Of a stretch of 64,000 bases of DNA, positions 1,536 to 57,044 are shown in pieces. Position 1 is the stretch's first letter, and every line of letters starts with the position of its first letter. A program made the position numbers and the translations under genes. This stretch comes from Chloroflexota bacterium (GTDB taxonomy: Bacteria > Chloroflexota > Limnocylindria > Limnocylindrales > CSP1-4). Below the pieces are notes generated by a model. The model was not told where the DNA came from. It ran no database searches and was given only the letters and a program-made list of their open reading frames with translations. The DNA lies in the NCBI GenBank assembly GCA_016191425.1, contig JACPOR010000006.1, positions 9,711 to 73,710 of the forward strand, written 5' to 3'.

Positions 1536-1601
1536 CGGGCCGAGTCCCGCCCGACCGGCGCCCGGAATCCGGGCCCGCGCGTCAGGGCCTCGGCACCTCC
1601 G

Positions 1602-2309: not shown

Positions 2310-2373
2310 GGGCGAAGGCTATCAGCGGATCCCGGGAACCGCCGCCACCCGCAGGTACTGGTACGCTCGCGCC

Positions 2374-3039: not shown

Positions 3040-3409
3040 CGTTGACGCGGGTCGCGGCGAGCGTGGCCAGGCCGGCTGATACGCCGGGCGGGTGCCCGGG
3101 GCGGGCTCGACGCCCTCCCGAAATCTCGGACAACGCTGCACGGGGGAGTATCGGCGAAGAAGGCCGGGCTGCCCGTACCGAGGGGCAGCCGGACGTTGGA
3201 GGCCCGGCCCCAGCGTCTCATGATCCTCTCACACGGCCCCGTTACGTTCCGCGAGAAGCCAGCCGGCCGCCGTTCCACGGGGAGGGTTCGAGACGCACCG
3301 CGAGACGCACCGCGAGGCGCCTATCCGTGGCCGCGGCGGCCGCGGCGGCCGCCGACCGCCGATCAGGGCGATCGCCGGGCTGGTCGTTGCGGCGTCCGCC
3401 CTCGCCGCT

Positions 3410-4381: not shown

Positions 4382-4398
4382 TCCGCGCGCCCCGCGGG

Positions 4399-5686
4399 TT
4401 ACCCGATAGCGCGGGCGGCGTTCCCCACGATCTCCAGGAGCGGCCCCGGGATGATGCCCAGGAGGACGGTGAGGATTGTCGTGACCACGAGGCCGGCCCA
4501 CAGCGAAGAAGCCGGCCAGGGGCGGGATCCCGGTGAGGGACAGCAGGAAGATCGTCATCAGGCCACCGAGGATGGGCTCGCGTCGGATGAGGCCCGCGAA
4601 CGTCTCCAGGTTGGACGTGACGCCGGCCCGCTTCTGGAGGGCCGCGATCACGGCGAAGGCACCGAGGTTCATGACGGAGTAGGCCGCGCCGTAGTACAGC
4701 AGGCCCTCGAGACCTTCGATTCGCCCCGCCGCGTAGGCCGCCAATCCGACCAGCATGTACCCCGTGTGCGCGATGGAGCTGTAGGCGAGCATTCGCTTGA
4801 CGTTGGTCTGGGTCAGGGCCACGAGGTTGCCGAGCGTCATCGTCAGGATGGCGAGGACGACCACGACCGGCAACCAGTCGGCCTTGAGCGGCCCGAGGGC
4901 CTCGACGAACAGGCGCAGGATCAGGGCGAAGGCACCGACCTTCGGACCAACACTGAGATAGCCGGTGACGGGCGTCGGGGAGCCCTGGTACGCGTCCGGC
5001 GTCCAGTAGTGAAACGGCACGGCGGCGATCTTGAAGGCGACACCGGTCGTGAGGAAGGCGAGGCCCAGCGCGAGTCCGGCGGACAGGCCGCCCGTCGCCA
5101 CCATCGAGGTGAGCTGGGCGGCGACCTCGGAGACCCGGGTGGTGCCCGTCAGGCCCCAGACGAAGGCAAGCCCGAAGAGAAAGATCGCCGAGCTGAACGA
5201 GCCGAGGAGGAAATACTTGATCGCCCCCTCGGTCGAATAGCCGTCGTTCTTGTGATACCCGGCGAGGAGGTAGCCGGGCAGGACCATGAGCTCGAGGCCG
5301 ATGAACAGCACGAGGAGATCCGCGGAGGCCGAGATCAGCATGGCGCCGGTCATGGCGAAGATCAGCACCGCGGCGAACTCGGCCAGCGGCAGTCGGCGGG
5401 ACTCCAGGTAGTCGGGTGCGAACACGAGCGTCAGGGCCGTGATCCCGACGAAGACGATGTCGAGGAACGTCGTCAGGTCGTCCACCCGGTAGGCGCCTCC
5501 GAAGGCCGTGGCCGACGTGGAGCCCGTGACGATCGTCAACAGGCCCACGATCGCCAGCCCACCGAGCCCCACGACCAGCACCGGCCCGTGCCGGTTGGGA
5601 ACGACGATGTCGGCCGTGATGACGCCCGCCGCGACGACGATCGCAGCGACGAAGGGTGCGACGGTGACGAGGTCCTGGAAGGTCAT
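4399..5686 (-). CDS. nuoN: NADH-quinone oxidoreductase subunit N, with 3' frame discontinuity
   Basis: Antiporter-like subunit with strong hydrophobic NuoN similarity up to GIPPLAGFF (~aa 396). The called frame then turns hydrophilic and overlaps the amidase 3' end. A +1 frame from ~4500 encodes a hydrophobic TM14-like end (SLWAGLVVTTILTVLLGIIPGPLLEIVGNAARAIG*) stopping at 4399. Confidence 0.7.
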
Positions 5687-5696
5687 CGGACGGCGG

Positions 5697-7334
5697 TCAC
5701 GCGTTCGTTTCGGCCGATGCCGAGCCGCGGATCATCGGGAGCGTGGCTATCCGCACAACGACCACCGCCGCGATGACCCCGATGCCGACGGCCGTCACCA
5801 GGGGATCCACGGCGATCGTCGTTCCCGCCGCGACATCGGCCAGGGCCCTGGCAACCGATCCGTCGATGATGTCGAGGAGGATCCCCGGGAAGAGCCCGAA
5901 AGTTACGACGAGCGCACCGAGCGGCGCCAGCGTCAGGATCTCGACCGGGGTGATGTCGGTCAGGTGGTTCCCGAGACCCGTCAGGAAGCCCGACACCTCG
6001 CCGGTCGCCATCCGCTGGAACATCCAGAGCATGTAGGCCGCACCGAGGATCATCACGAACGTGGCGGTCGCCGCGGCGAACGGGTTGAACGCAAATGTCC
6101 CGAGGAGGACGAGGAACTCGCCCACGAAGCCGGACAATCCCGGCAGGCCGGCCGAGGCGAAGACGAAAAAGCCCATGATCGCGATATAGACGGGCGTCCG
6201 GCCGGCGAGCCCACCCATCTTCGCAATCGTCCGGTCGTGAGTGCGCTCGTAGATGACCCCCACGAGCAGGAACAGGGCCCCGGTGATCAGGCCGTGATTG
6301 ACCATCTGGAGGATGGCGCCGTCCATGCCCTGCGGCTGGAAGATGAAGATGCCGAGGGTCACGAAGCCCATGTGACTGACCGAGGAATACGCCACGAGCT
6401 TCTTGAGATCCGGCTGGACGAGGGCCACGATCGCGCCGTAGATGATCGCGATCAGGCTCAGGACGATGATCACCGGGGCAAAGGTCTGGGCCGCGTCCGG
6501 ATAGAACGACAGCCCGTATCGAATGAACCCGTAGCCGCCGAGCTTGAGGAGGACGCCGGCGAGGATGACCGAGCCGGCCGTCGGCGCCTCGACGTGGGCG
6601 TCAGGAAGCCAGGTGTGGAACGGGAACATCGGGACCTTGATCGCGAAGGCCAGGAAGAACGCCCCGAAGGCCAGCAGCTGGAGCGTGGGATCGAAGCCGC
6701 CGCCGCTCGTCGCGAACGCCCGCAGGACCTCGTAGTCGAACGCGCCGGTCCAGTTGCCGCCATTCGCGGCCTGGAAGGCGAACGCCGTGGCCAGGATCGC
6801 CACCAGCATCAGGAGCGATCCGACGAGGGTGTACAGGACGAACTTGATCGTGGCGTAAATGCGATTGGCGCCGCCCCAGATCCCGATGATCAGGTACATC
6901 GGGACCAGGACGATCTCCCAGAAGATGTAGAACAGGAAGGTGTCGAGGGCGAGGAAGACACCGATCATCCCGACCTCGAGGATCAGGAACGAGATCATGT
7001 ACTCCTTGATCCTGGTCTGGATCGGCTTGAAGCTCGCCAGGATGCTGATCCACGAGAGCGTCGTCGTGAGCACCACCATCAGCAGGGACAACCCGTCCAC
7101 GCCGAGCTTGTACTCGATCCCGAAGGCGGGAATCCAGGACAGTTCCTCGGTGAACTGGAAGAGACCGCCGCGCCCGGCCGAGAAGCCGACGGCGAGCAGG
7201 AGCGAAGCGATCCAGGTCAGGAGCGATGCCCCGAGCGCGACCGGGCGTGCCCAGGACGCCGGCAGGAACGCGATCAGCAGCGCTCCGATGAGCGGCAGGA
7301 ACACGATGAGCGACAGGATCGGGAAGCCGTCCAT
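5697..7334 (-). CDS. nuoM: NADH-quinone oxidoreductase subunit M
   Basis: 546 aa from internal ATG (MDGFPILSL...); antiporter-like motifs, e.g. GLPGLSGFVGEF. The longer ORF has an Arg/Pro-rich spurious N-extension. Confidence 0.85.
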   Translation of the reverse strand: MDGFPILSLIVFLPLIGALLIAFLPASWARPVALGASLLTWIASLLLAVGFSAGRGGLFQFTEELSWIPAFGIEYKLGVDGLSLLMVVLTTTLSWISILASFKPIQTRIKEYMISFLILEVGMIGVFLALDTFLFYIFWEIVLVPMYLIIGIWGGANRIYATIKFVLYTLVGSLLMLVAILATAFAFQAANGGNWTGAFDYEVLRAFATSGGGFDPTLQLLAFGAFFLAFAIKVPMFPFHTWLPDAHVEAPTAGSVILAGVLLKLGGYGFIRYGLSFYPDAAQTFAPVIIVLSLIAIIYGAIVALVQPDLKKLVAYSSVSHMGFVTLGIFIFQPQGMDGAILQMVNHGLITGALFLLVGVIYERTHDRTIAKMGGLAGRTPVYIAIMGFFVFASAGLPGLSGFVGEFLVLLGTFAFNPFAAATATFVMILGAAYMLWMFQRMATGEVSGFLTGLGNHLTDITPVEILTLAPLGALVVTFGLFPGILLDIIDGSVARALADVAAGTTIAVDPLVTAVGIGVIAAVVVVRIATLPMIRGSASAETNA

Positions 7335-7423
7335 GCCTACGGCCCCGCCATCAGCGCGTACGAGGCGACCATGACGATCAACCCGATCGCGATGCCCAGG
7401 GCGTAGTTCTGCACCCGTCCGGT

Positions 7424-9349
7424 CTAGACACGGGCCAGTCCACCACCACTCCGTCGGGTGACCGAGCCGATGCCGTTGACGATGCCGTCCACGACGTTCG
7501 CATCGAACCACCACAGGAACGCGGCGACGCGGCCGCCGATCAGGATGAAGAGGACGTGGTTGATCTCGTCGAACCACCACTTGTTCAGCGACGCGCGGTA
7601 CAGGAAGGGGACGCGGGCGGTGAGGGCTCGGACCTCTTCCGGATCCCCGCGCCGCCGCAGGCCGCCGACTTCGACGCCGAACAGCCGCCACGCGGCCAGC
7701 ATGCCGATGACAGCGACGGCCACGCTGATCAGGATCAGGACGCCGTCGATCCCGAAGATCGCAAAGTCGGCCTCACGGCGCCCGAGAATCTCGAGCCCCT
7801 GGGCGTACACGGGTTCCAACCAGCCAGCCAGGAGTCCCGGCCCGGTCTGCCCAAAGAGCGGCCCGAGCGGCGGACCCGGCCAGGACAGCAGCAGGCCGAG
7901 GAGCACCGCCGGGACCGCGAGCAGCCAGAGAGGGAGCGTCATCACGGCCGGCGACTCGTGGATCTTCGGCTCGACGGTCGCGTCCACGCGGCTCTCGCCC
8001 CAGAACGTCATGCCGATGAGCCGGAACATGTAGAACGCGGTCATGACGGCCACCAGCACGCCGATCGCCCATACCCAGTAGAAACCGGCCTTGAACGTCT
8101 CGCCCAGGATCTCGTCCTTGCTGAAGAAGCCCGCCAGCAGCGGGATCCCGGCCATCCCGATCGACCCGATCAACATCGTCCGGTAGGTGTGCGGGATCTT
8201 CTTCGCGAGGCCGCCCATCTTCCGCATGTCCTGCTCATCGTGGACGGCGTGGATGACCGAACCCGAGGCGAGGAAAAGCAGGCCCTTGGTGAATCCCTGG
8301 GCCATCAGGTGGAAGATCGCCGCCGTCCACGCTCCCACGCCGAGCGCGGCAAACATGTAGCCAAGCTGCGACAGCGTTGAGTAGGCGAGGACACGCTTGA
8401 TGTCCGTCTGGGTCAGGGCGATGGATGCCGCGAGCAGCGCGGTGAAGATGCCGATCCCGGCGACGACAACCATCGCCTCGGGGGCGCTGGCGAAGATCGG
8501 GTTGGCTCGGGCGACGAGATAGACGCCTGCGTTGACCATCGTCGCGGCATGGATGAGGGCCGACACCGGGGTCGGACCCTCCATCGCGTCCGGCAACCAG
8601 ACATGAAGCGGGAACTGGGCGCTCTTGCCCATCGCCCCGGCGAAGATCAGGAGGGCGATGACCCAGATCGGGATCGGCAGCGCAGCGGCCAGGGTCCCGG
8701 TCGTGCCCATCGAAGTCGGCCCGGTCAGGGCCCCGATCGAATCCCGGATGTTCAGCGTTCCCGTGTTCACCCAGATCGCCATGATCCCGAGCGCGAACCC
8801 GACGTCGCCGACGCGGTTGACGATGAATGCCTTCTTGCTGGCCAGTGCTGCGGAGTGCTTCCGGTACCAGAACCCGATGAGCAGGTAACTCGACAGGCCC
8901 ACCAGCTCCCAGGCCACGAAGACCGTCAGCCAGCTGTCTCCGAGGACGAGCAGGAGCATCGAGAACATGAACAGGTTCAGGTAGGCGAAGAAACGCCAGT
9001 AGCCCGGGTCGTGGCTCATGTACCCGATGGAGTAGATGTGCACGAGCAGACCGACCGTCATCACCACGATCAGGAGGGCGGCCGTGAGGTTGTCGACGAA
9101 GAAGGCGGCTTCGATATGAAAGGCGCCGGCCGGGATCCAGTCCCAGAGCTTGACCGTGCGACCCTCATCACCGAACCCGCCCGTGACCGCCGTGAAGACG
9201 ACCACCATGGCAACCACCCACGCGATGGCCACCGCCGCGACCGGCACGATGTGGGCGCGCTTGCCCAGCCGCCGCCCGACGGCGGCGGTGAACAGGAAGC
9301 CGGCGATGGGCAGCAGCGCGATCAGCGGGATCAGGATGTCCATGCTCAC
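7424..9349 (-). CDS. nuoL: NADH-quinone oxidoreductase subunit L
   Basis: 641 aa, NuoL motifs (GIPLLAGFFSKDEIL), long C-terminal region with lateral helix and terminal TMs; GTGA overlap with nuoK stop. Confidence 0.9.
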   Translation of the reverse strand: MSMDILIPLIALLPIAGFLFTAAVGRRLGKRAHIVPVAAVAIAWVVAMVVVFTAVTGGFGDEGRTVKLWDWIPAGAFHIEAAFFVDNLTAALLIVVMTVGLLVHIYSIGYMSHDPGYWRFFAYLNLFMFSMLLLVLGDSWLTVFVAWELVGLSSYLLIGFWYRKHSAALASKKAFIVNRVGDVGFALGIMAIWVNTGTLNIRDSIGALTGPTSMGTTGTLAAALPIPIWVIALLIFAGAMGKSAQFPLHVWLPDAMEGPTPVSALIHAATMVNAGVYLVARANPIFASAPEAMVVVAGIGIFTALLAASIALTQTDIKRVLAYSTLSQLGYMFAALGVGAWTAAIFHLMAQGFTKGLLFLASGSVIHAVHDEQDMRKMGGLAKKIPHTYRTMLIGSIGMAGIPLLAGFFSKDEILGETFKAGFYWVWAIGVLVAVMTAFYMFRLIGMTFWGESRVDATVEPKIHESPAVMTLPLWLLAVPAVLLGLLLSWPGPPLGPLFGQTGPGLLAGWLEPVYAQGLEILGRREADFAIFGIDGVLILISVAVAVIGMLAAWRLFGVEVGGLRRRGDPEEVRALTARVPFLYRASLNKWWFDEINHVLFILIGGRVAAFLWWFDANVVDGIVNGIGSVTRRSGGGLARV

Positions 9350-9663
9350 CGGCGCATCGCGTCGTACTCGTCGACGAGTGGGGTCTTCCGGTTGCGATAG
9401 ATCGCGATGATGATGGCGAGGCCCACCGTCGCCTCGGCCGCGGCGACCGCCATGACCATCAGGGCGATGATCGAGCCGTCCGCCTTGAGGCTCGGGATGA
9501 ACGACCCGAACGCCACGATCGCGAGATTGACCGCGTTCAGCATCAGCTCGATCGACATCAGCATGCTGATCGCGTTTCGACGAGCAAGGAAGCCGAACGT
9601 GCCGATCGTGAACAGCGCTCCCGACAGGACGAGGTAGGCGTCCAGGGAGTTGGCGAGGCCCAT
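9346..9663 (-). CDS. nuoK: NADH-quinone oxidoreductase subunit K
   Basis: 105 aa, three TM helices, typical NuoK sequence; ATGA overlap with nuoJ stop. Confidence 0.9.
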   Translation of the reverse strand: MGLANSLDAYLVLSGALFTIGTFGFLARRNAISMLMSIELMLNAVNLAIVAFGSFIPSLKADGSIIALMVMAVAAAEATVGLAIIIAIYRNRKTPLVDEYDAMRR

Positions 9664-10250
9664 CAGGTCGGCTCGTCTTCGCGCTTGGCGATGAAGATGC
9701 CGCCGATCACCGCCGCGAGCAGGAGCACGCTGACGACCTCGAACGGCAGGACATAGTCGCCGAACAGCACTCGGGCGAGGGTGTCGGTGGCCAGGCGGAC
9801 GCGTGACGACGCCTCGCCCCAGTCCGTCGCGCTCACCGCGAGGGCGATCAGGACGACGAGGATGATGGCCGCCACCGCGGCCGAAGCGGCCTGTGTCTGG
9901 AACACGAGCCTGGCCGGTCCGGCCTTCGACTGGGTGAGCATGATCGCGAACAGGATCAGGACGCTGATCGCGCCGATGTAGACGATCACCTGAGCCGCGG
10001 CGACCAGGGGCGCCCCGACCACGACGTAGATCCCGGCCAGGGCAAGGAAGGCCACGATCATCGCGAGGCCGCAGCGAATGATGTCCCGCATCGTCACCAC
10101 CAGCAGGGCCGACGTGAGCATCAGGGTCGCGAGGGCAGCGAACAGCGCATCGTCGACCGAGCCACCACCCAGCACGAACACGATCAGGGCTGGTGTGGTG
10201 ATGATCGCGCCTGCGACCGCTGCGGAGAGGAGGTAGAGCCAGCCTCGCAT
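9663..10250 (-). CDS. nuoJ: NADH-quinone oxidoreductase subunit J
   Basis: NuoJ-like TM protein ending ...FIAKREDEPT; start placed at internal Met (MRGWLYLL...), exact start uncertain by a few codons. Confidence 0.75.
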   Translation of the reverse strand: MRGWLYLLSAAVAGAIITTPALIVFVLGGGSVDDALFAALATLMLTSALLVVTMRDIIRCGLAMIVAFLALAGIYVVVGAPLVAAAQVIVYIGAISVLILFAIMLTQSKAGPARLVFQTQAASAAVAAIILVVLIALAVSATDWGEASSRVRLATDTLARVLFGDYVLPFEVVSVLLLAAVIGGIFIAKREDEPT

Positions 10251-10257
10251 CCGTCGT

Positions 10258-12753
10258 CTACTTCGTGTGGGCGTGGGTGCTGCCCGCACCACCGTGGCCA
10301 TGCCCGTGTCCGTCGGCGACGAGGGCTGAGCCGTTTCCGTTGGCCGAGCTCACGGATGCGGGGAGCATCGGCAGGAGCTTCGCGCGATCGACGAACCGTC
10401 CCTCTTCGACGGCGCGCTGCAGCCAGTCGCGTTCGCGGCGAATGTAGCTGACCTCGGTCTCACGGTCGACGGTGGCGAGGGCCATGAGGTCGATCATCGG
10501 CTCCGACCGACTGGTGTGGGCAGTCTCGAACTCGCCGCCGTCGCGGAGCGCGTCGTACGGACAGGCGTCGACGCAGATGCCGCAGAGGATGCACCGACTC
10601 TCGTCAACCTCGTACTTCTGGAGCACGCGGGGCTTGGGCATCAGCGCCCCGGTCGGGCAGGTCTCGGCGCAGCGGCCGCAGGACACGCAGGGCGTGTCGT
10701 TGAGGCTCATGTCGAGCGGCGTCGTCACCAGCGTGTCGAAGCCGATGCGCATGAAGTCGTAGCACGCCGCGCCGACGACCTCGGCACAGACGTTCGCGCA
10801 ACGGCCGCAGTCGATGCAGCGGGATGGCTCGCGCAGGATGAAGGCGTGGCTGTCATCCCGGATGTAGTCGTGGTTGACGCCCGTGAACCGGTTCTCGGTC
10901 ACGCTCCGGTACCCGGCCCCCTGATGGTGCTGTGGCTCGAGCGTCTTGAGCGTCGTCCCGTATTCGATGCCGAGTCGACGGAGGTCGCAGAACCCGATTG
11001 CCTCGCAGGTGCACTGCAGGCAGCGGGTGGACTCGGCGACCGCCTCGGCGAGCGAGTACGGGATTTCGTACTCGACGTAGCTCGCGTTCCGGTCCTCGGC
11101 CTCGAGCGCCTTCATCCGATAGCGCGGCTCCTTGACCTCCGAGGTGAAGGGCACGATCGAGAGGAACTCGGGCTGCGGCTCGGCCAGCGTCTGGCGAGTC
11201 TTGATCTCGGACAGGTCGTGGCCGCGCAGGTATGCGTCGACCGCGTAGGCGGAGCGTCGGCCCTCCGCCACGGCCTGGACCACCGTCGCCGCGCCGATTC
11301 GGACGTCCCCGGTCGCGAACACGCCTCGACGTGTTGTTTCGAAGGTGACCGCATCCGCCTGCAGGCGCCCCTGCTTCGTGGCCGTGATGCCCTCAAATCC
11401 ATGGCCCACCCAGGACAGGTCAGGCCCCTGGCCGATCGCGAGCAGGACACGGTCACAGGGGATGATGAACTCCGTGCCGGCTGCGGGCTCCGGACGTCTT
11501 CGACCCGACGAGTCCGGCGCACCAAGCTGCATCCGGATGAACTCGACCCCGCTGACCTTGCCCGTCGTCGCGTCGACCACGACCCGGGTCGGGCCGGCCT
11601 GGAAGATCGCCGTGACGCCTTCCTCGATTGCCTCATGGACCTCGCCGGACGCGGGCATGTCCTTCATGTCGCGCCGGTAGACGAGCGTGACCTCGCGAGC
11701 GCCCTGGCGAACCGATGTCCGGCTGCAGTCCATCGATGTGAAGCCACCGCCGATGACGACCACCCGCTTGCCCTCGTGACCGGGATAGGGCAGGCCCAGG
11801 GTGGCCGTGCGCAGGTATTCCAGGCCATCGATGACCCCGTCGGCGTCCTCGTTCGGGATCCCGAGCTTGTTGGTGTGGTAGCAGCCGATCGCGATGAGGA
11901 CCGCATCGAAGCCCTGGTACTGCAGGTCGTCCAGCGTGAAATCGCTCCCGAGGCCCTGGTTGCAGACCACCTTTCCGCCGAGCCGGGTGACGGATTCGTA
12001 CTCGGCCTCGAGGACTTCGACCTTCGGCAGACGGTACTGCGGGATGCCGTAGCGGAGCATGCCGCCCGGCGCCGGGTCGCGCTCGAAGACGGTCACGTCG
12101 TGGCCGCTGATGAGCAGGTAGTACGCGGCCGCCATGCCCGCCGGCCCGGAGCCGATGATGGCGACCTTGCGGCCGGTCTTCGGCTGGAGGTCGAACGGGA
12201 CGGGCGGGTCGATCCCGTCGTCGAGCATCTGGCGGAGCACTTCATCGCCCGCGTATCGGTGGCTGTCCCGGATGGCGATGGCCTCGTCCACCTCGTCCCG
12301 GCGGCAGTGGTCCTCGCACGGAGCGGGACAGACGCGGCCGAGGACGGACGGGAAGGGGATGGTCCGCTTGAAGATCCGCGTCGATTCGCGCCAGTTGCCC
12401 TCGGCGTTCTGCTTCAGGAACCCGGGGATGTCGATGTGGCTGGGGCACTTGTTCTGACAAGGCGGCAGACAGTAGGCGTTATGGTCCGAGAAGATCAGCT
12501 CGAGGTTCGTCCTCCGGAGACGTCGCAGCTCCTCCGTCTGCGTCTGGACCTTCATGCCGTCCTCGGCCGCCCGGGAACAGCTGATTGGTGGGTACTCCTC
12601 GCCCTCCACCTCCACGACGCACATCCGGCATGCGCCGAAGCCGGGGAGTTTCGGCTCGTAGCACAGGGTGGGGATCTCGATCCCGTTGTCCCGGCAGACC
12701 TCGAGGATGGTCTGCCCCTCGAGGCCCTCGACGATCTGCCCATCCACTTCCAT
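10258..12753 (-). CDS. NuoG-position fusion protein: NuoG-like N-terminal [2Fe-2S]+[4Fe-4S] domains, GltD-like NAD(P)H/FAD oxidoreductase domain, C-terminal 4Fe-4S ferredoxin repeats; no molybdopterin-like domain
   Basis: From ATG 12753: MEVDGQIVEG...IPTLCYEPKLPGFGACRMCVVEVEG (NuoG/Fdh 2Fe-2S), HNAYCLPPCQNKCP (His/Cys3 cluster), CPAPCEDHC plus GSGPAGMAAAYYL / VVVIGGGFTSMDC / ATGDVRIG (GltD-like Rossmann motifs), then three C-x2-C-x2-C-x3-C(P) motifs. The longer ORF start 12936 is TTG and overlaps nuoF. Confidence 0.7.
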   Translation of the reverse strand: MEVDGQIVEGLEGQTILEVCRDNGIEIPTLCYEPKLPGFGACRMCVVEVEGEEYPPISCSRAAEDGMKVQTQTEELRRLRRTNLELIFSDHNAYCLPPCQNKCPSHIDIPGFLKQNAEGNWRESTRIFKRTIPFPSVLGRVCPAPCEDHCRRDEVDEAIAIRDSHRYAGDEVLRQMLDDGIDPPVPFDLQPKTGRKVAIIGSGPAGMAAAYYLLISGHDVTVFERDPAPGGMLRYGIPQYRLPKVEVLEAEYESVTRLGGKVVCNQGLGSDFTLDDLQYQGFDAVLIAIGCYHTNKLGIPNEDADGVIDGLEYLRTATLGLPYPGHEGKRVVVIGGGFTSMDCSRTSVRQGAREVTLVYRRDMKDMPASGEVHEAIEEGVTAIFQAGPTRVVVDATTGKVSGVEFIRMQLGAPDSSGRRRPEPAAGTEFIIPCDRVLLAIGQGPDLSWVGHGFEGITATKQGRLQADAVTFETTRRGVFATGDVRIGAATVVQAVAEGRRSAYAVDAYLRGHDLSEIKTRQTLAEPQPEFLSIVPFTSEVKEPRYRMKALEAEDRNASYVEYEIPYSLAEAVAESTRCLQCTCEAIGFCDLRRLGIEYGTTLKTLEPQHHQGAGYRSVTENRFTGVNHDYIRDDSHAFILREPSRCIDCGRCANVCAEVVGAACYDFMRIGFDTLVTTPLDMSLNDTPCVSCGRCAETCPTGALMPKPRVLQKYEVDESRCILCGICVDACPYDALRDGGEFETAHTSRSEPMIDLMALATVDRETEVSYIRRERDWLQRAVEEGRFVDRAKLLPMLPASVSSANGNGSALVADGHGHGHGGAGSTHAHTK

Positions 12754-12907
12754 TCGGATGGCCGGCGTGGACTGCGGGCGCTGCGGCGACTGCGTGGTGA
12801 GCAGGTGCTCGGCCAGTGTGTCCTCGCAGGGCGCGATGGTATCGAGGACGGCCGGCGTATCCGGGCGGGACTCGGCGCGCGTGATCAGGTCAGCCAAGGT
12901 CGGGGCC

Positions 12908-14239
12908 TCAATGCGTTGCGCTCGCCGCCATCGCAATTGGATGACAGACGCCCGCAGGGCAGGAGCCGCGCTCGAGATGCTCGTCGAGCTCCGCTCGGAA
13001 GTATCGCATCCCGCTGACCAGCGGGAGTGTCGTCAGGCGCTCGTGGTCGCACAGGGCCGAACCGACGATGTCTGCCGCGAGATCGGTGAGGAGATCCAGA
13101 TCACCGGCGCGCGACGTTCCGGCGGCGAGGCGATCCCCGATCTCGGACAGGCGGCGCGTTCCGATCCGGCAGGGGATGGTCTTGCCGCACGCCTCATCGG
13201 CACAGTAGCGGGTCAGGACGCGGGCAAGATCCACGATGCACGCCCGATCATCGGCAACGATCACGGACCCGGAGCCGATATGGGCGCCGGCGGCCCGGAG
13301 CGCCGCAAAGGTGTACGGAACATCCAGTGCATCCGGCGGCAGGATCCCGCCCGAGGGTCCGCCGACCAGGACGGCCTTCAGCTTCCGGGCACCCGTCGGG
13401 GTGCCGGCCAGGGCCGCGACGTCGCGGAGGGAGGTGCCCAGCGGGATCTCGGCCACGCCCGACGCCTCCGGCCCGCGAACCTGCACGAGGATCGTGCCGG
13501 GACATTCGGCCGCGCCGATCCTTGCGAACGCTTCTGGGCCGTTGACCACGATCCACGGGATCGTGGCGAGCGTCTGGACATTGTGGACGACGGTCGGCAG
13601 GCCTCGAAGACCGCGGGTGGCCGGGTGCGGCGGCCGCTGCTCGGGCTGGCCGCGCTTGCCTTCGAGGGCCTTGAGGAGGATCGTCTCCTCGCCGAGCAGG
13701 TAGGCGCCCTGGACCGTGCGGACGCTGAGGTCGAGGTGATGGCCGGGCCCGAACGCGTCGAGACCGACGAATCCCGCGTCCTGGGCGGCCCCGACGGCCG
13801 TTTTGAGGATGCGAATCGTGGCTCCGGCATCCGCCCGCACGGCGATGATCGCCTCATCCGCACCGATGGCGAACGCGGCGATGGCCAGCCCCTCGATGAT
13901 CGCGTAGGGGTTCCGCTCCATGAGCACGCGATCGGTGGCCGACGACGGGTCCGCTCCATAGCCGTTCGCCACCACGACCCGACTGCTGGCCGGCGTGGCA
14001 CTCGCCGCTCGCCACTTGTCGGCCGACGAAAAGCCGGCCCCGCCACGGCCGCGCAGTCCGGACGCGCCGATCGCGGCGGTCGTACCCGTCGCTCCAAGGT
14101 CGCGCAACGCGAGACGGAGGCCGGCGAACGCCCCGGCCGCCATCGCCGCCTCGAGGTCCGTGGGATCCGCCGCGTCCTTGCCTGGCAACAGGATCGCCGG
14201 CCAGCTCCTCGGTGTCGGGAGGATCGTGACGTCGGTCAT
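12908..14239 (-). CDS. nuoF: NADH-quinone oxidoreductase subunit F (51 kDa), divergent
   Basis: GLRGRGGAGFSSADKW, YLLGEETILLKALEG, PHPATRGL.GLPT and C-terminal 4Fe-4S cysteines (CGKTIPC...LCDHE) match NuoF. The CNADE(S/M)EPG motif is altered to ANGYGADPS. ATGA overlap with upstream nuoI/E' stop. Confidence 0.8.
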   Translation of the reverse strand: MTDVTILPTPRSWPAILLPGKDAADPTDLEAAMAAGAFAGLRLALRDLGATGTTAAIGASGLRGRGGAGFSSADKWRAASATPASSRVVVANGYGADPSSATDRVLMERNPYAIIEGLAIAAFAIGADEAIIAVRADAGATIRILKTAVGAAQDAGFVGLDAFGPGHHLDLSVRTVQGAYLLGEETILLKALEGKRGQPEQRPPHPATRGLRGLPTVVHNVQTLATIPWIVVNGPEAFARIGAAECPGTILVQVRGPEASGVAEIPLGTSLRDVAALAGTPTGARKLKAVLVGGPSGGILPPDALDVPYTFAALRAAGAHIGSGSVIVADDRACIVDLARVLTRYCADEACGKTIPCRIGTRRLSEIGDRLAAGTSRAGDLDLLTDLAADIVGSALCDHERLTTLPLVSGMRYFRAELDEHLERGSCPAGVCHPIAMAASATH

Positions 14240-14916
14240 GCGTCGTCGCCCCCGCCGCCGCTGAGCGATGCCCCGAGGCCGGCCAGGAATGCCTGCTCGG
14301 CCGGACGACGGGCGGCCATCGCCGCCGCTTGCTCCAGCAGGGCCGGAGGCTCGAAGCGAAGGTGCCCGTAGAAGGACGCGGTTCCGTAGATCTGGGCGTA
14401 CCAGGTGCCGGTCACCTGGCTGATCCGCTTGAGCGCGCCAACCGGCAGGTAGCCGTAGTGAGCCTGCGTCGCCTCGAGGATCGCCAGCAGGTGGGCCGGG
14501 TCGTGATCGAAGCCTTCGAGGATGTCATCCACGGCACCAACGTCCACGCCCTCGAAATGGTCGTAGGCGGGATCCGGGACGGTCCGTCCGGAGCGTCGGA
14601 GCGCCGATTCCTCGCGCCGTTCGCCGTAGGTCTCGGCGGCGCCCCAATGGACGTGGAAGCGGCCCTTGGTGTCCATCCCGCCCATGTCGATGCACTCGAT
14701 CGGGCAGGCCTGGGCGCACTGGAAGCAGGTTTCGCACTTGAGGGTGCCGTACTCGTCGTAGAGCAACTGGAGGCGGCCCCTGAATTTCGGGGGAATGTCC
14801 GCCCGGACCTCCGGGTACCGGATGGTGGCCTTCGGCTCGAAGAACCGCCGGAGGGTCAGGGCCATGCCCCGGACCATGCCGGACCCCGGAACGAGGCGTA
14901 TCGGATTCATGCTCAT
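14236..14916 (-). CDS. NuoI-like (single Fe-S motif) fused to NuoE-like N-terminal helical domain
   Basis: From MSMNPIRL: YPEV...PKFRGRLQL...CETCFQCAQACPIEC matches the NuoI N-half (one CxxCxxCxxxCPxxC motif), and the second ferredoxin motif is absent. The C-half (FEGVDVGAVDDILEGFDHDPAHLLAILEATQAHYGYLPVGALKRISQVTGTWYAQIYGTASFYGHLRFEP) matches the NuoE N-terminal domain, but the thioredoxin-like 2Fe-2S (N1a) domain and its cysteines are absent. ATGA overlaps on both sides. Confidence 0.65.
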   Translation of the reverse strand: MSMNPIRLVPGSGMVRGMALTLRRFFEPKATIRYPEVRADIPPKFRGRLQLLYDEYGTLKCETCFQCAQACPIECIDMGGMDTKGRFHVHWGAAETYGERREESALRRSGRTVPDPAYDHFEGVDVGAVDDILEGFDHDPAHLLAILEATQAHYGYLPVGALKRISQVTGTWYAQIYGTASFYGHLRFEPPALLEQAAAMAARRPAEQAFLAGLGASLSGGGGDDA

Positions 14917-16250
14917 GAGCCGACGATCACGACTGCCGCGGCGGTCACGAACAGGTTGAGCAAGGCGGCCGGCAGGAGCCACTTCCACGCGAACCCCATC
15001 AGCTGGTCGATCCGCACGCGCGGGAGGGTGCCCCGCATCCAGACAAAGACGAAGACGAAGCCGAACGTCTTGGCCATGAACCAGACGAGCCCGGCGACCC
15101 AGTCGAAGCTCACGTATGCCCAGGCGAAGGTCAGGCCGCCGGCGACAACGTTGAACAGGACGAACCCGATGATCAGCGCCACCCACCAGCGCATCGAGCT
15201 GCGCGCGAGGTAGAAGGGCGCCGCCAGCGCGAGGGTTCCGATTATCGGCACGAGGGCGATCAGGAACAGGAGCGGGATCCCGAGCGAGCCCGGGTACAGG
15301 GGGATCGACAGGGCCGGAAACGGGAACGGTGCGTTCCACCCTCCGAGAAACAGCACGGCTGCCAGCGCTGAGAGGATGAACACGTTCACGTATTCGGCGA
15401 AGAAGAAGAACCCGAAACGCATGCCTGAGTACTCGGTGGCAAAACCGGCCACGATCTCCGAATCGGCTTCAGTCAGGTCGAACGGCGTGCGGTTGGCCTC
15501 TGCTGTGGCTGCGATGAAGAAGATCACGAAGCCGAGTGGCTGACGGAACACGAACCAGTCGGTGAACCAGCCGGATTGCTGCTGGACGATCTGATTCAGG
15601 CTCATGGTCCCGGCGAGGATCAGCAGGCCGACGACCGACAGGGTGAGCGGGATCTCATAGCTGACGATCTGTGCCGCCGAGCGGAGGCCACCCAGAAGCG
15701 AATACTTGTTGAAGCTGGACCAGCCACCCATCAGCAGTCCGACGACACCCATCCCGCCGACCGCGAAGAAGTACAGCAGCCCGATGTTGAAGTCCTGGCC
15801 GTACAGGCCGGGGGCGAACGGCAGCACCAGGAGCGTCATGACCGCGGCCGCGTAGGTCACGACCGGCGCCCAGGTGAACACGATCGGGTCTGCGGCAGTC
15901 GGCGTGAAGTCCTCCTTGATCAACACCTTGAGACCGTGGACGACGGACAGCAGAGAGCCCCATGGCCCGACGCGGTCCGGGCCGACCCGCAGGTTCATGA
16001 GGGCGATCACCTTCATCTCGAGGTAGATGTTCAGGAAGGCGATCGGGATCGTGATGACGAGGATGATCGTGGCCGCCGCGAGGAATCGGACGAAGCCGAG
16101 ATTCGCGAGGATGAGGTCCGCCGCGGTGCCGCCGAACAGCACGATCAGCGCCACCAGGCCAGCCCCGAGCACCGCGAGCAGCGGCACGAGCGTGAACACG
16201 ATCCTGCCGGGCAGGGTCAAGCGCCCCCAGGCGCGCGAAACGGCCGTCAT
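14913..16250 (-). CDS. nuoH: NADH-quinone oxidoreductase subunit H
   Basis: 445 aa polytopic membrane protein with NuoH/ND1 sequence features. Confidence 0.9.
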   Translation of the reverse strand: MTAVSRAWGRLTLPGRIVFTLVPLLAVLGAGLVALIVLFGGTAADLILANLGFVRFLAAATIILVITIPIAFLNIYLEMKVIALMNLRVGPDRVGPWGSLLSVVHGLKVLIKEDFTPTAADPIVFTWAPVVTYAAAVMTLLVLPFAPGLYGQDFNIGLLYFFAVGGMGVVGLLMGGWSSFNKYSLLGGLRSAAQIVSYEIPLTLSVVGLLILAGTMSLNQIVQQQSGWFTDWFVFRQPLGFVIFFIAATAEANRTPFDLTEADSEIVAGFATEYSGMRFGFFFFAEYVNVFILSALAAVLFLGGWNAPFPFPALSIPLYPGSLGIPLLFLIALVPIIGTLALAAPFYLARSSMRWWVALIIGFVLFNVVAGGLTFAWAYVSFDWVAGLVWFMAKTFGFVFVFVWMRGTLPRVRIDQLMGFAWKWLLPAALLNLFVTAAAVVIVGS

Positions 16251-16371: not shown

Positions 16372-17601
16372 TCATTTGTCGACTCCTCCCATGACCGGAT
16401 CGAGGGAGGCCATGATCGCCATGCAGTCGGCGATCAGGTCACCGCGCATGAGCAGGCCGACCGACTGGAGGTGGACGAAACTCGGGTCGTGGATCCGCAT
16501 CCGGAACGGCTGGTCCGTGCCGTCGCTGATCGCGTAGGTCGCGTACTGCCCACGCGGGCCCTCGATGGCCGCGTAGGCCCGGCCGGGTCGGGGGCGAAGC
16601 AATCGCGGCAGTTTCGCCATGATCGGGCCATCCGGCATCTGGTGGAGGCACTGGTCGATGATCCGGAGGCTCTGTTTGATCTCCTCCATCCGGAGCAGGT
16701 AGCGGGCCAGGGAGTCACCCTCGGTCCGGGTCGGGATATCGAAATCGAGTTCGGGATAGATCGAGTACGGGTGCGCCCGCCGGACGTCGAAGGGACTGCC
16801 CGTGGCGCGCAGGTTGGGCCCCGTCATGCACATCGCCAGGGCCGTCTCCGTATCCACGACGCCGAGACCGCGGGCGCGCCGGACGAAGATCTCGTTCTGG
16901 TTGAGGAGCGTGAGGTTGGCCTCGATCTGCCCCGTTGCGCGGCTCATCCAGTCGCCAAGGCGACTCATGAAGTCGTGATTCAGGTCCCCGTTGACGCCGC
17001 CGATCCGGAAGTAGTTGAAGAGCATCCGCTGGCCCGTCAGCGCGGCCAGCATCTCGACGATCTCGTCGCGCTCGATGAACGACCAGAGAATCGGGGTGAG
17101 GCCGCCGAGATCGAGGGCGAACCAGCCCATGAACAGGGCGTGGCTCGCGATCCGGTTGAGCTCACCGGACAGCACCCGGATGTACTCGGCACGGCGCGGG
17201 ACGTCGACGTCGAGGAGCTTCTCGAAGGCCATGACGGGTGACCACTCGCAGAACAGCGAGCTGACGTATTCGAGCGGGTCAACCTGGCTGATGACCTGGT
17301 GGTAGTCGGCGTTCTCGCACAGCTTCTCGACCCCGCGATGGAGGTAGCCGAGGACGGGATCCAGATCCACGACCTTCTCGCCGTCGAGTTTCAGGACGAT
17401 GCGCAGGACGCCATGGGTGGACGGATGCTGCGGTCCCATGTTCAGGAACATCTGTCCATCGCCGAGCGTGTAGAACTCGGCCTCCCGCTCAGTCCTCGGC
17501 GGGTACGGTGGAACGGTTCCGAAGACGCCGATCTCGTCGTCCAGGAGGACGCGCGGGTCGTCGGCCGATGCGTGCCGGCCGGGATGTGAGGTCGTCGTCA
17601 T
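16372..17601 (-). CDS. nuoD: NADH-quinone oxidoreductase subunit D (49 kDa)
   Basis: 409 aa; MFLNMGPQHPSTHGVLR..., YLHRGVEKL, C-terminal region typical of NuoD. Confidence 0.9.
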   Translation of the reverse strand: MTTTSHPGRHASADDPRVLLDDEIGVFGTVPPYPPRTEREAEFYTLGDGQMFLNMGPQHPSTHGVLRIVLKLDGEKVVDLDPVLGYLHRGVEKLCENADYHQVISQVDPLEYVSSLFCEWSPVMAFEKLLDVDVPRRAEYIRVLSGELNRIASHALFMGWFALDLGGLTPILWSFIERDEIVEMLAALTGQRMLFNYFRIGGVNGDLNHDFMSRLGDWMSRATGQIEANLTLLNQNEIFVRRARGLGVVDTETALAMCMTGPNLRATGSPFDVRRAHPYSIYPELDFDIPTRTEGDSLARYLLRMEEIKQSLRIIDQCLHQMPDGPIMAKLPRLLRPRPGRAYAAIEGPRGQYATYAISDGTDQPFRMRIHDPSFVHLQSVGLLMRGDLIADCMAIMASLDPVMGGVDK

Positions 17602-17613: not shown

Positions 17614-18159
17614 CTACGCCTTCACGCGGCGGATCGCGCCGGCCGAGGTGCCCTGCGGGGCGTGGCTTCGCTCCATGGGCCGGACCCCGCCGCCGGGGGA
17701 ACGCGCGGCATCGTCGGGGAGGAAGAAGTCCTTCCGGAGCGGAAAGCTTGTGTAGTCAGGCGGCATGTAGATGCGCCGCAGGTCGCGGTTGCCCTCGAAC
17801 ACGATCCAGAACATGTCGTAGGCCTCGCGCTCCATCCACTCCGCGCCCTTCCAGAGGAAGGTGATCGAGGGGGTCCGCGGCTCGTCGCGGGCGATCCCTT
17901 CGGCCACGACCCGCAGCCAGTCCGAGGTCGTTTCACTCCAGAGGTGATAGACGACCTGCATCTGCTCGCCGGTGTCGACGCCGGCCAGGTCGGACAGCAT
18001 CAGGAAGCGGAACTCCGGCTCGTCGTGGAGCGCCCGGAGCACATCGGGGGCCGCCGCCGCCGGGATCCGCAGCTCGGTCTCGTCGTGACGCTGGCGAATC
18101 GGTTCGGTCGCGACATCGCCGAACCTGGATTCCAGGCGTGCCCTGAAGGCTCGATCCAC
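17614..18159 (-). CDS. nuoC: NADH-quinone oxidoreductase subunit C (30 kDa)
   Basis: 181 aa with NuoC-like core (WKGAEWMEREAYDMFWIVFEG); separate from nuoD. Confidence 0.85.
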   Translation of the reverse strand: MDRAFRARLESRFGDVATEPIRQRHDETELRIPAAAAPDVLRALHDEPEFRFLMLSDLAGVDTGEQMQVVYHLWSETTSDWLRVVAEGIARDEPRTPSITFLWKGAEWMEREAYDMFWIVFEGNRDLRRIYMPPDYTSFPLRKDFFLPDDAARSPGGGVRPMERSHAPQGTSAGAIRRVKA

Positions 18160-18160: not shown

Positions 18161-18901
18161 TCAGACTCCAGGCGGAACGGTGGGGCCGATGGCGCGCTCC
18201 GGCCAGTGGCCGCGGCGATCCTTGACGATCTGCTGGAGCTTCATCATCCCGTAGATGAGGCCCTCCGGGCGGGGCGGGCAGCCGGGGATGTAGACGTCCA
18301 CCGGCATGACCCGGTCGATTCCCTCGATCGTGCTGTAACTGCGCTTGTAGCGCCCCCCGGAACAGGTGCAGTCGCCCATCGCGACACACCACTTGGGCTC
18401 GGGCATCTGCTCCCACAGGCGGACGAGCGGGCCCGCCATCTTCGTGGTCAGGGTGCCGGCGACGATCAGGACGTCCGCCTGGCGCGGCGAGGCGCGGAAC
18501 GGGAACATGCCCCAGCGATCCATGTCGTTCTTCGAGGTCGCGGCGCTCATCATCTCGATCGCGCAGCAGGCAAGGCCCGACAGGAGCGGCCAAAGGCTGT
18601 TGGCCCGCAGGAGATCGAGCACGACGTCGGCCTTGGTCGGGATCACCTCGAGCAGGCCGGACCATCGGGCGTCGTCGCGGCGGGACACGTCGCTGGCCGC
18701 AACCTCGGCAAGGTGCGCGAGGCCGCTGTCCGTTCCGCCGTTGTAGGCGGTCCCGGCGGCGGAAGTCCACAGGTCGTTCTTCACGACGATGGGCGCCGTG
18801 ACACCCGAGGTCCCCGGAACGACGAGGGCCGTCGAGCCGATGCGTGCGCGACCCTCGCGGGCAGCGACGCCGGCGGGCTCCGGGTCGTCGTTCATCGCCA
18901 C
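18161..18901 (-). CDS. nuoB: NADH-quinone oxidoreductase subunit B (N2 cluster subunit), with ~75-aa N-terminal extension if the ORF start is used
   Basis: NSLWPLLSGLACCAIEMM...GDCTCSGG...PGCPP motifs; true start may lie downstream of the ORF start (canonical NuoB core begins around residue 80). Confidence 0.85.
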   Translation of the reverse strand: MAMNDDPEPAGVAAREGRARIGSTALVVPGTSGVTAPIVVKNDLWTSAAGTAYNGGTDSGLAHLAEVAASDVSRRDDARWSGLLEVIPTKADVVLDLLRANSLWPLLSGLACCAIEMMSAATSKNDMDRWGMFPFRASPRQADVLIVAGTLTTKMAGPLVRLWEQMPEPKWCVAMGDCTCSGGRYKRSYSTIEGIDRVMPVDVYIPGCPPRPEGLIYGMMKLQQIVKDRRGHWPERAIGPTVPPGV

Positions 18902-19353
18902 GTGAGAACCCCCTTTCGCCAGGCGTATGCGAGGCCGATCAGGAGGATACCCACGAACAGGAGCATGCTCACGAAACCGGCGAGCAGCAGGTCTCGGAAG
19001 ATCACCGCCCAGAGGTAGATGAAGACGACCTCGATGTCGAAGGCGACGAACAGCAGGGCATAGATGTAGAACGAGAAACCGAAACGACCGTGCGTATCAC
19101 CGAGGGTGTCGATGCCCGACTCGTAGGGCAGGCCTTTGTGGACGTCACCGCGATTGCGATGCGACAGCAGCCACGCCGCGCCGAACGTCAGGAACGTGAA
19201 CGACACGGCCGCGACGGCGAAACCGACGATGTACCAGATCCCGGTCAACCCGATCCTCACTCCGAACGGCGCCAGCAACGGGCGACGCTCGCTTCTGGGC
19301 AGCAACGTCCTGGGCGGGACGAGCCTCGAGGCCAATCGCAGCGGGCCGTGCAC
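18892..19353 (-). CDS. nuoA: NADH-quinone oxidoreductase subunit A
   Basis: C-terminal ...LIGLAYAWRKGVLTWR typical of NuoA. ORF start is GTG 19353; an alternative GTG at 19260 would give a more typical ~123-aa protein. Confidence 0.8.
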   Translation of the reverse strand: MHGPLRLASRLVPPRTLLPRSERRPLLAPFGVRIGLTGIWYIVGFAVAAVSFTFLTFGAAWLLSHRNRGDVHKGLPYESGIDTLGDTHGRFGFSFYIYALLFVAFDIEVVFIYLWAVIFRDLLLAGFVSMLLFVGILLIGLAYAWRKGVLTWR

Positions 19354-32348: not shown

Positions 32349-35111
<2,763 letters not shown>

Positions 35112-35154
35112 GGTGGATCTCGGTTCTCTTTCCCTGCGCCGCGGATCGTTGTGG

Positions 35155-44672: not shown

Positions 44673-44714
44673 CCTGCTCCCTGCTCTGGCGCCGTCTCAG
44701 GCCGTCTCCGCCGG

Positions 44715-55674: not shown

Positions 55675-55770
55675 GATGTGAACCTCAGGGCGGAGGGGGG
55701 TGGAACCCTGCGGGGATGGAGGGAGGCCGGGAACCCGATGGATGCCCGGCCTCCAGGGCGCGAAACGCTC

Positions 55771-57024: not shown

Positions 57025-57044
57025 GCATTCTCCTCCTCGAATGA

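Follow-up and report, generated by a model that had tools for sequence, protein, structure and literature searches.

How can a complex I be built when its NuoI subunit carries only one of the two ferredoxin motifs that ligate its tandem [4Fe-4S] clusters? The question is raised by a nuo operon within a 64,000-nucleotide stretch of DNA (hereafter, the window) from a Chloroflexota bacterium of the Limnocylindria (assembly GCA_016191425.1, contig JACPOR010000006.1, positions 9,711 to 73,710). The operon lies on the minus strand and has the order nuoA-B-C-D-H-[I_N·E_N]-F-[G_N·GltD·Fer4·I_C]-J-K-L-M-N, where I_N and I_C denote the N- and C-terminal halves of NuoI and E_N a NuoE-type N-terminal domain. 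The gene following nuoH (14236..14916, minus strand; the target ORF hereafter) encodes a protein of 226 aa (MSMNPIRL...GGGDDA), which an earlier note had read as a one-motif NuoI fused to a Cys-free NuoE N-domain, leaving cluster N1a and one of the N6 clusters unable to form in the usual way. Our analysis upheld the fusion and led to another view of the missing motif. We consider it likely that NuoI is split in this unusual complex I, with nuoI interrupted between its two motifs by a three-part electron-input module derived from NfnABC/Bfu.

The target protein has exactly five Cys residues, at positions 61, 64, 67, 71 and 75, and none beyond C75. A six-frame motif scan located its CxxCxxCxxxCP motif, CETCFQCAQACP, at 14701..14736 (minus strand), and this motif is invariant in a 43-sequence alignment of the fusion protein. 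The single motif and the absence of later Cys residues are thus as the earlier note had them. C75, which the note had set apart as an extra Cys, is indeed present, yet we rejected it as a special cysteine, since CPxxC (CPIEC in the target) is also seen in canonical two-motif NuoI proteins (CPAHCI in P0244, CPAECI in P0248 and CPADCI in P0267).

Alignment to profile hidden Markov models confirmed both domain assignments. Residues 1–91 (14644..14916, minus strand), comprising an N-terminal helix that contacts the membrane arm, motif 1 and the strand FHVHW, make up I_N. Of these, residues 13–88 match positions 1–65 only of the 121 in TIGR01971 (E 1.3e-13), and the target matches positions 12–88 of the 180 in NF004536; the TIGR01971 score, 50.6 bits against a curated cut-off of 113, lies below the family threshold. 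The NuoI-specific segment that precedes motif 1, GMVRGMALTLRRFFEPKATIRYPE, is nearly invariant in I_N and has no counterpart in ordinary ferredoxins, and in a PDB search residues 13–79 align with TYKY/NuoI chains (E 4e-12).

The other end of the protein is a Cys-free helical domain of the NuoE/NfnC N-terminal type (E_N, residues 126–192; 14341..14541, minus strand), identified with PF01257, AlphaFold2 (AF2) and Foldseek. Residues 130–191 match positions 2–63 of the 145 in PF01257, the NuoE family (35 bits against a cut-off of 24.8), which is the helical portion without the 2Fe-2S domain; positions 64–145 remained unmatched in the target protein in the profile search. TIGR01958 (NuoE) gave 21 bits against a cut-off of 142, and NuoE/NfnC/HydC-type PDB chains match residues about 122–191. 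The AF2 model of the fusion protein is confident for the E_N helices only (predicted local distance difference test, pLDDT, 76–92), with residues 44–106, in the I_N region, below 50, as would be expected of an incomplete half-domain on its own. The best Foldseek match of the E_N model is NfnC (9bov_C; root-mean-square deviation 1.3 Å over 66 columns, 39 % identity) vs 2.9 Å and 22 % identity for E. coli NuoE, and NfnC is the closest relative in sequence, too.

Between the two domains lies a nearly invariant segment, GAAETYGERREESALRRSGRTVPD... (residues 92–125; 14542..14643, minus strand). The 25 residues between I_N and E_N, W91–D115, are invariant or nearly so in the 43-sequence alignment, reading GAAETYGERREESALRRSGRxVPD almost throughout, which argues against a passive linker. 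The target ATG overlaps the nuoH stop codon as ATGA, and the target stop overlaps the ATG of the NuoF-like gene in the same manner, suggesting translational coupling on both sides.

The second motif was found on another polypeptide. The large subunit, an 892-aa ORF (10258..12936, minus strand) assigned by profile searches and by alignment to 9bov_A, is a 100 % match to P0294, where it is annotated with 879 aa. Its residues about 770–830 (10447..10629, minus strand) represent I_C and contain the CxxCxxCxxxCP motif CILCGICVDACP (10558-10593, minus strand). Residues 770–816 match TIGR01971 positions 71–117 of 121, the tail scoring 45.4–49.1 bits against the cut-off of 113. With the last 126 residues as the query, nine of the 11 top NCBIfam matches were NuoI/NdhI, always over their C-half. 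The best single-stretch PDB matches of this tail were NuoI/TYKY chains (8qby_I 93-144, 7ar7_I 99-159), in alignments that extend 30–45 residues past the Cys motif; polyferredoxins outrank these chains in the same search because their score sums many motif repeats.

The canonical NuoI P0240, used in a tblastn search, matched the window at exactly two places: its residues 14–78 at 14877-14683, within I_N (49 % identity, E 2e-18), and its residues 61–150 at 10689-10441 (E 4e-10). Five canonical NuoI proteins also served as references for a separate fragment alignment of each piece. The N-half tracks NuoI through motif 1 and the strand FHVHW (corresponding to FEINM/FDIDM) and diverges exactly where RCIFCG should start; the C-half starts at KYEVDESRCILCGICVDACP and runs on to the conserved D-x-x-x-L region. 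By this comparison, NuoI is split directly before its second motif, with the halves on two polypeptides encoded two genes apart. Both halves are encoded between nuoH and nuoJ, separated by the nuoF-like gene and the body of the large subunit. The two CxxCxxCxxxCP motifs that a NuoI would hold in one polypeptide are therefore distributed over two chains, and the earlier claim that one N6 cluster cannot be formed did not survive. Nor did we find a frameshift in the window that would restore a second motif to the target; the motif exists in trans instead.

Which motifs pair with each other can be judged from homology. A six-frame scan of the whole window returned only four ferredoxin-type motifs, one in the target and three in the large protein. 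The first two of the latter, CIDCGRCANVCA and CVSCGRCAETCP, belong to a 2x[4Fe-4S] ferredoxin domain (10642..10839, minus strand; A2/A4, or FS4B/FS4A) recognised by alignment to 9bov_A. Residues 690–770 align to residues 131–210 of the [FeFe]-hydrogenase CpI, with the same 32-residue motif spacing, and homology with NfnA (9bov_A), StnC (8oh5_C) and the [FeFe]-hydrogenase F-domain makes motifs 707–717 and 750–760 the A2/A4 pair. This pairing leaves one orphan motif on each polypeptide. In clostridial-type ferredoxins and in Nqo9, a cluster is held by three Cys of one motif plus the CP-cysteine of its partner, so that the two orphan motifs would be exactly enough for N6a and N6b across two chains.

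Some observations weigh against this two-chain reading. Motifs 750–760 and 782–792 (the latter in I_C) are only 21 residues apart, a spacing typical of clostridial-type ferredoxins; Pfam Fer4_7 spans both and, together with Fer4_9, covers residues 750–796. Taken alone, the sequence would thus be compatible with a two-cluster domain formed in cis by these two motifs, the I_N motif being left as an orphan that holds one cluster, or none, with other ligands. Besides, the AF2 model of the 879-aa large subunit (37-sequence alignment) was unusable, with a mean pLDDT of 39.7. Still, we regard pairing in cis as improbable: homology and the shared 32-residue spacing put motif 750–760 with 707–717, which pairing in cis would leave orphaned; all three motifs of the large protein are invariant, as is that of I_N; and the sequence past C792 tracks NuoI rather than a generic ferredoxin.

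The split is not peculiar to this genome. Fusion proteins of 221–226 aa with 76–89 % identity occur in more than 120 protein clusters from NCBI, JGI, ENA and Logan assemblies. A genome scan, with one genome per species and its count taken as a lower bound, recovered at least 155 species-level loci encoding the same fusion, nearly all labelled Limnocylindria, Limnocylindrales or Chloroflexota. Eighty of these loci were examined in detail, and at all 80 the fusion protein has exactly one ferredoxin motif. Sixty-one extend past nuoF; in 60 of them, tblastn with the window proteins gave the order nuoD-nuoH-[I_N·E_N]-nuoF-[Fer2_4·GltD·Fer4·I_C]-nuoJ-nuoK, with no other nuoI in the operon. GltD and I_C share a single ORF at 54 of the 60, the remaining six being MFD-series metagenome-assembled genomes (MAGs). 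All 31 Cys residues in functional parts of the large subunit are invariant in 53 of 53 sequences, including C782, C785, C788 and C792 of I_C.

These data bear on two other explanations. The first is the one put forward in the earlier note, a truly one-motif NuoI in which N6a or N6b is missing or unconventionally ligated and the wire from N5 to N2 has a gap or a new geometry. The target polypeptide itself, with its one motif and no further Cys, would fit this idea, which we nevertheless find very improbable: the second motif lies two genes downstream within sequence specific to the NuoI C-half and is invariant in 53 of 53 species, and the complementary pairing recurs in three other gene architectures (described below). 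The second explanation is a sequencing or assembly artefact, with a frameshift or a chimeric join producing both the apparent fusion and the truncated NuoI. In some MFD-series MAGs, ORFs at other places in the operon are indeed broken or fused (L048, L067), and one locus breaks off past nuoF. Against this stand the recurrence of the same 221–226-aa protein in the clusters and species genomes counted above, its conservation across hundreds of assemblies, the ATGA-overlapping starts and stops, and the lack of any further motif or thioredoxin-like domain in the other frames of the window; we rejected the artefact as having next to no probability.

The locus that breaks off (L025; JBCLDE010000001.1, 12000–14000) is the sole exception to the gene order. 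Here, the operon ends about 20 codons into the large-subunit gene and is followed by unrelated genes (ferredoxin, thyX, 2-oxoglutarate dehydrogenase), reflecting either a rearrangement or a chimeric or misassembled contig.

What, then, separates the halves of NuoI? The gene after the target encodes a NuoF/BfuB-core-like flavoprotein of 443 aa with a flavin mononucleotide (FMN)/NADH site (12908..14239, minus strand; Pfam Complex1_51K and NADH_4Fe-4S). Among PDB chains it most resembles NfnB (9bov_B), HydB and StnB, at about 320 bits, vs 266 bits for the best complex I NuoF, 8e9g_F, and 220–224 bits for the E. coli and Thermus proteins. It aligns only to residues about 100–526 of the 584-aa NfnB, and neither the N-terminal thioredoxin-like domain nor the C-terminal ferredoxin/Zn domains of BfuB were found in it by Pfam or PDB alignment. 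The FMN loop GLRGRGGAGF and GEET are conserved. The N3/B1 motif (residues 351–357 and 397–400) reads CGK[T/S/A]IPC...LCDHE in 68 of 68 Limnocylindria orthologues: the second Cys is replaced by T, S or A in every one, leaving three Cys, and L-C-D-H-E is invariant. This loss points to a fourth ligand other than Cys or to a 3Fe cluster. Two distant relatives, L082 and L084, retain CGxCxxC in their NuoF.

Some features of the flavoprotein count against our reading. It is the least conserved protein of the operon (59–87 %), and its FMN/NADH site is non-canonical (ANGYGADP vs CNADEGDP in NfnB), in addition to the missing N3 Cys; on these sequence features, its activity is uncertain. We considered whether it might be a decaying pseudo-subunit and rejected this, because the FMN loop, GEET and the three N3 Cys residues are invariant and the changed positions are fixed in 68 species.

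The large subunit has a NuoG-type N-terminal part (G_N), into which the GltD/NfnL domain is inserted at the His-ligated cluster. It begins with a [2Fe-2S] domain equivalent to N1b/A1 (Fer2_4; residues 59–134, 12535..12762, minus strand; PF13510, E 1.1e-19), continues with a GltD-type Fer4_20 plus Pyr_redox_2 unit and several Fer4 motifs, and ends in the C-half of NuoI. The GltD/NfnL-like domain (11221..12471, minus strand; PF14691, PF07992 and 9bov_A alignment) carries the [4Fe-4S] clusters A6 and A7, flavin adenine dinucleotide (FAD) and an NAD(P)H site, GGGFTSMD...VYRR. The best PDB relatives of the whole protein are bifurcating transhydrogenases, not complex I NuoG. It aligns with Caldicellulosiruptor NfnA (9bov_A residues 4–699) over residues 60–792 at E 5e-166, with the ligand Cys residues conserved; further relatives are Thermococcus NfnA (9n5u_A) and Sporomusa StnC (8oh5_C). 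Retained are the A1 [2Fe-2S] site, His-ligated A3, A6, A7, A2, A4, the FAD motif GxGxxG and GGGxxxxD...YRR. Homology to NfnA gives out at the A5 motif (vCtfCgmgC), precisely the point at which I_C (sRCILCGICVDAC) begins. In the alignment to 9bov_A, no Fdh/NuoG-like C-terminal domain was found; the NuoI C-half stands in its place.

An Arg pair of the VYRR type is typical of NADPH-binding GltD-type domains. Judging from this YRR motif and from homology, the FAD site may prefer NADPH over NADH. In the same domain, the Lys ligand of A7 (K170 in Csac NfnA) aligns with an invariant His, H226 (H213 in the 879-aa numbering); the Nfn structure paper describes this Lys as conserved in all Bfu members (PMC11829005). 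Downstream of I_C, the C-terminal tail of the large subunit (10258-10330, minus strand) is rich in His and Gly, GHGHGHGGAGSTHAHTK, with the consensus GHGH..GGAGG.HAH partly conserved in orthologues, and might possibly bind metal.

One part of a conventional N-module is absent. No thioredoxin-like NuoE/NfnC domain with the four Cys for N1a/C1 is encoded in any frame of the window, and N1a therefore cannot form from what is encoded here, as the earlier note had concluded. Neither a separate nuoE, downstream of the target or elsewhere, nor a second nuoI was found in the window by tblastn, for which the queries were a complete NuoE, two thioredoxin domains and a pair of canonical NuoI proteins. 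In Csac NfnABC, as set out in the structure paper (PMC11829005), B1-FMN-C1 is the minimal bifurcation site, and electrons travel along FAD-A7-A6-A3-A2-A1-[B1-FMN-C1]; its authors regard the branch A2-A4-A5, which leads to the Fdh-like domain, as a dead-end remnant, and they find the N-terminal domain of NfnC anchored in the cleft between the Fdh-like domain and NfnB. The present operon lacks a complete B1-FMN-C1 flavobicluster, with the C1 domain absent and three Cys only in B1/N3. Because C1 is missing, the enzyme would not be expected to bifurcate.

From these comparisons we infer how the halves would co-fold, which route the electrons would take and which nucleotides would be used. The two halves of NuoI would form a two-chain 2x[4Fe-4S] domain, in which three Cys of one chain and a fourth of the other hold each cluster, so that N6a and N6b would both form across the chains. 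The N-module would thereby be covalently tied to the Q-module on both sides, and E_N would anchor the flavoprotein as the N-domain of NfnC does in NfnABC. The NuoI C-half replaces the Fdh-like domain, and the N-half is joined to E_N, the domain that normally docks beside the Fdh-like domain, which makes the arrangement geometrically coherent. Electrons would enter at FMN (from NADH) and at FAD (from NADPH, or NADH) and pass via A-type clusters to N6a/N6b, to N2 on NuoB and to quinone in NuoD/H, with quinone reduction driving a normal proton-pumping membrane arm. The replacement of the Fdh-like domain suggests the A2-A4 branch as the exit to N6a/N6b, although the canonical hand-over from N5 (A3) to N6a may be used alternatively. 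Without N1a/C1 and without the extra BfuB domains, such an enzyme would be non-bifurcating. The earlier suggestion of an altered electron wire is thus probably right, yet for another cause: rather than a lost N6 cluster, the whole N-module is of the Nfn/Bfu type, carries an additional FAD/NAD(P)H domain and lacks the C-terminal domain of NuoG.

The remainder of the operon encodes canonical Q- and P-modules. Upstream of the target (all on the minus strand) are nuoA (18892..19353; PF00507), nuoB (18161..18901; PF01058), whose product has the N2 ligands CC...C...GCPP, nuoC (17614..18159; PF00329), nuoD (16372..17601; PF00346), with the quinone-site His (HPSTHGV) and Tyr (GYLHRG), and nuoH (14913..16250; 445 aa, PF00146, E 2e-104). 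Downstream of the large subunit lie nuoJ (9663..10301; PF00499), nuoK (9346..9663; PF00420), nuoL (7424..9349; PF00361, PF00662), nuoM (5697..7406, start approximate; PF00361) and nuoN (4154..5686; PF00361), all likewise on the minus strand, so that the membrane subunits A, H, J, K, L, M and N are present. In NuoH, the Pfam NADHdh model of 298 positions spans residues 61–437, pointing to insertions of some 80 residues in total compared with a typical NuoH.

We extended the search to distant I_N·E fusions among 50 %-identity representatives and found full-length examples down to 28 % identity. In L081 (Logan SRR22388304, genes 1321–6023), nuoH is followed by I_N joined to a complete four-Cys NuoE, then by a 1048-aa protein in which NuoF is combined with a thioredoxin-like 2Fe-2S domain and, at the C-terminus, GltD, then by a 265-aa NuoG-N/Fer4 protein ending in the NuoI C-half, and finally by nuoJKLMN. 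As this locus keeps all parts of B1-FMN-C1, it encodes a candidate confurcating complex I. L082, from a Chloroflexi MAG, has nuoA-D, nuoH, I_N·E_N, a NuoF whose N3 motif is canonical and a G'·GltD protein of 793 aa with I_C at its end. L084 (JGI 3300086682, genes 9392–14515) consists of a nuoB-like gene, a 246-aa I_N·E_N, NuoF and an 805-aa G'·GltD·I_C. The 246-aa type is widespread, with 1682 profile-search matches at E<=1e-5, single 90 % clusters of up to 520 members and Ktedonobacteraceae as the named carriers.

In each of L081, L082 and L084, a one-motif I_N fusion has as its counterpart a NuoG-like protein with the NuoI C-half at its end. Together with a deep Limnocylindria subclade (L069, L071, L072, L074 and L078–L080) and the forms in the window, they share the split NuoI as a constant feature. 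N1a, on the other hand, varies. The thioredoxin-like domain of the deep subclade has VCRCTAC and has lost the second Cys pair, and read from sequence the family appears to form a series from intact N1a (L081 type) through lost ligands (deep subclade) to deletion of the domain (window).

The wider family also brings up another explanation, according to which the module is a soluble Nfn-like NAD(P)H oxidoreductase in its own right that happens to lie within the nuo operon, and complex I uses a canonical NuoI encoded elsewhere, or none. Ktedonobacteraceae-type loci speak for it, and against our reading, since their cassette has a nuoB-like gene and no other nuo gene within 10 kb: the module may also function apart from a complete complex I, being used separately there, or the nuo genes may be dispersed. 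Besides, nuoJ-N do not follow the module in L082, and the closest solved relatives, NfnABC and StnABC, are treated as stand-alone complexes in the structure papers. We nonetheless judge this explanation unlikely for Limnocylindria. There, the module sits exactly in the nuoI slot from nuoH to nuoJ, in overlapping, translationally coupled genes; no other nuoI occurs in the operon at the 60 loci; I_N keeps its nearly invariant NuoI-specific N-terminal segment, foreign to ordinary ferredoxins; and even the minimal cassette includes NuoB, the next carrier in the complex I chain.

Beyond the operon, Pfam scans of 20 further window proteins returned only the remaining nuo subunits and unrelated housekeeping genes. 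Directly upstream of nuoA is a gene for a Methyltransf_28 protein (PF02636; 19605-20915, minus strand). We take this family to be that of NDUFAF7/MidA, the eukaryotic complex I assembly factor that methylates the NuoD homologue, and its position adjoining a bacterial nuo operon is suggestive. An ORF at 20801-21901 (minus strand) contains, around 21400, a short peptide repeated in tandem, PELPELPELPELPGRPGRPEL, with its mirror GSSGSSGSSGSSG on the other strand. At 42600-46724 (minus strand) lie two neighbouring paralogous genes for amino-acid permeases of 690 and 669 aa (AA_permease_2), and the housekeeping context includes ClpB (32349-35183), Lon (36313-38784), PurH (28957-30504) and a Liv-type ABC transporter (about 51649-57057).

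In every complex I characterised so far, to our knowledge, NuoI/TYKY is one highly conserved subunit that binds both clusters. A natural version divided between two chains, each joined to a different N-module subunit, would be a novel construction of the N6a/N6b bridge and a naturally occurring two-cluster ferredoxin fold put together in trans. What N1a does is a long-standing question in complex I research, and the natural N1a series within this family makes it directly testable by comparison. A GltD/NfnL-type domain wired into complex I would tie the evolution of the complex I N-module to the Bfu bifurcating enzymes and suggests direct respiratory oxidation of NADPH; if our reading is true, the complex would feed NADPH electrons directly into the quinone pool and work without N1a. 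Taken further, soil and freshwater Chloroflexota would harbour, in abundance, an unrecognised class of complex I, with an Nfn-derived arm, a split NuoI, NADH oxidation at FMN, NADPH oxidation at FAD and no N1a, whose L081-type relatives with B1-FMN-C1 could confurcate or bifurcate; we offer this tentatively, as a proposal standing somewhat below even chances.

Curated libraries miss these proteins, on which every NCBIfam model of NuoI and NuoE scores far below its cut-off, and the source records name them 'ferredoxin', 'hypothetical protein', 'NAD(P)H-dependent oxidoreductase subunit E', 'FAD-dependent oxidoreductase' or 'formate dehydrogenase major subunit'. With such labels, automated reconstructions of metabolism in Limnocylindria and Ktedonobacteria would probably list nuoE, nuoG and nuoI as absent and misjudge the respiratory chain. 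In the searchable full-text literature, whose scope leaves out most subscription-journal papers, neither a split NuoI nor this type of operon was found described. Term searches returned nothing on either in Schut 2022 (PMC9304861), Degli Esposti 2015 (PMC4758237), or Moparthi & Hagerhall 2011, Hug 2013 and Sewell 2017 (among PMC5736913, PMC3144371 and PMC3971608). The combination of a split NuoI with an Nfn-type two-flavin N-module is a well-supported and apparently undescribed variant of complex I.

How it relates to known systems can be stated part by part. With canonical NuoI/Nqo9/TYKY (NDUFS8), the two halves share the N-terminal segment, both motifs, the strand before motif 2, the post-motif region and the place of the gene between nuoH and nuoJ. 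There, however, NuoI is one chain, whereas here each half belongs to a separate chain together with an N-module protein, some 4 kb of other coding sequence separates the two, and both score below the curated cut-off (50.6 and 45–49 bits vs 113). The canonical NuoE/NuoF/NuoG N-module has the same role, flavin electron input, and N3-, N1b-, N4- and N5-like clusters are common to both; the present module differs in lacking N1a and the molybdopterin-like C-terminal domain of NuoG, in its extra FAD/NAD(P)H domain and in its location, between nuoH and nuoJ instead of between nuoD and nuoH.

NfnABC and StnABC (9bov/9bp5, 9n5u, 8oh5; PMC11829005, PMC12018979) are the closest match for the input module. 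The large subunit aligns with NfnA over about 730 residues, and A1, His-ligated A3, the inserted NfnL/GltD FAD domain with A6/A7, and A2/A4 are common to both. Unlike NfnABC, the module described here has no NfnC thioredoxin domain with C1 and none of the N-terminal thioredoxin-like and C-terminal ferredoxin/Zn domains of NfnB; its A7 Lys is a His, one B1/N3 Cys is lost, and its genes are embedded in a complete nuo operon.

Two further systems place related proteins within complex I-like operons. According to Schut et al. 2022 (PMC9304861), 'Nuo-Bfu' clusters of Geobacter, Deferribacteres, Planctomycetes and Nitrospirae likewise have a Bfu-related E/F/G module in the middle of a nuo cluster, proposed to feed a proton-pumping quinone reductase, and the authors predict that an intact BfuBC core confurcates NADH and ferredoxin. 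A search for the terms 'NuoI' and 'GltD' gave no hits in that paper, and compared with those clusters the present operon lacks C1, has the NfnL/GltD domain and splits NuoI. In the mbx-like operons, as described by Degli Esposti 2015 (PMC4758237), a GltD-related flavoprotein substitutes for NuoI and offers a reduction site for NAD(P)+. Common to those operons and ours is a GltD-type, NAD(P)-interacting flavoprotein at the NuoI position of a complex I-like membrane complex; here, NuoI is kept but split, and the canonical quinone-site residues are present.

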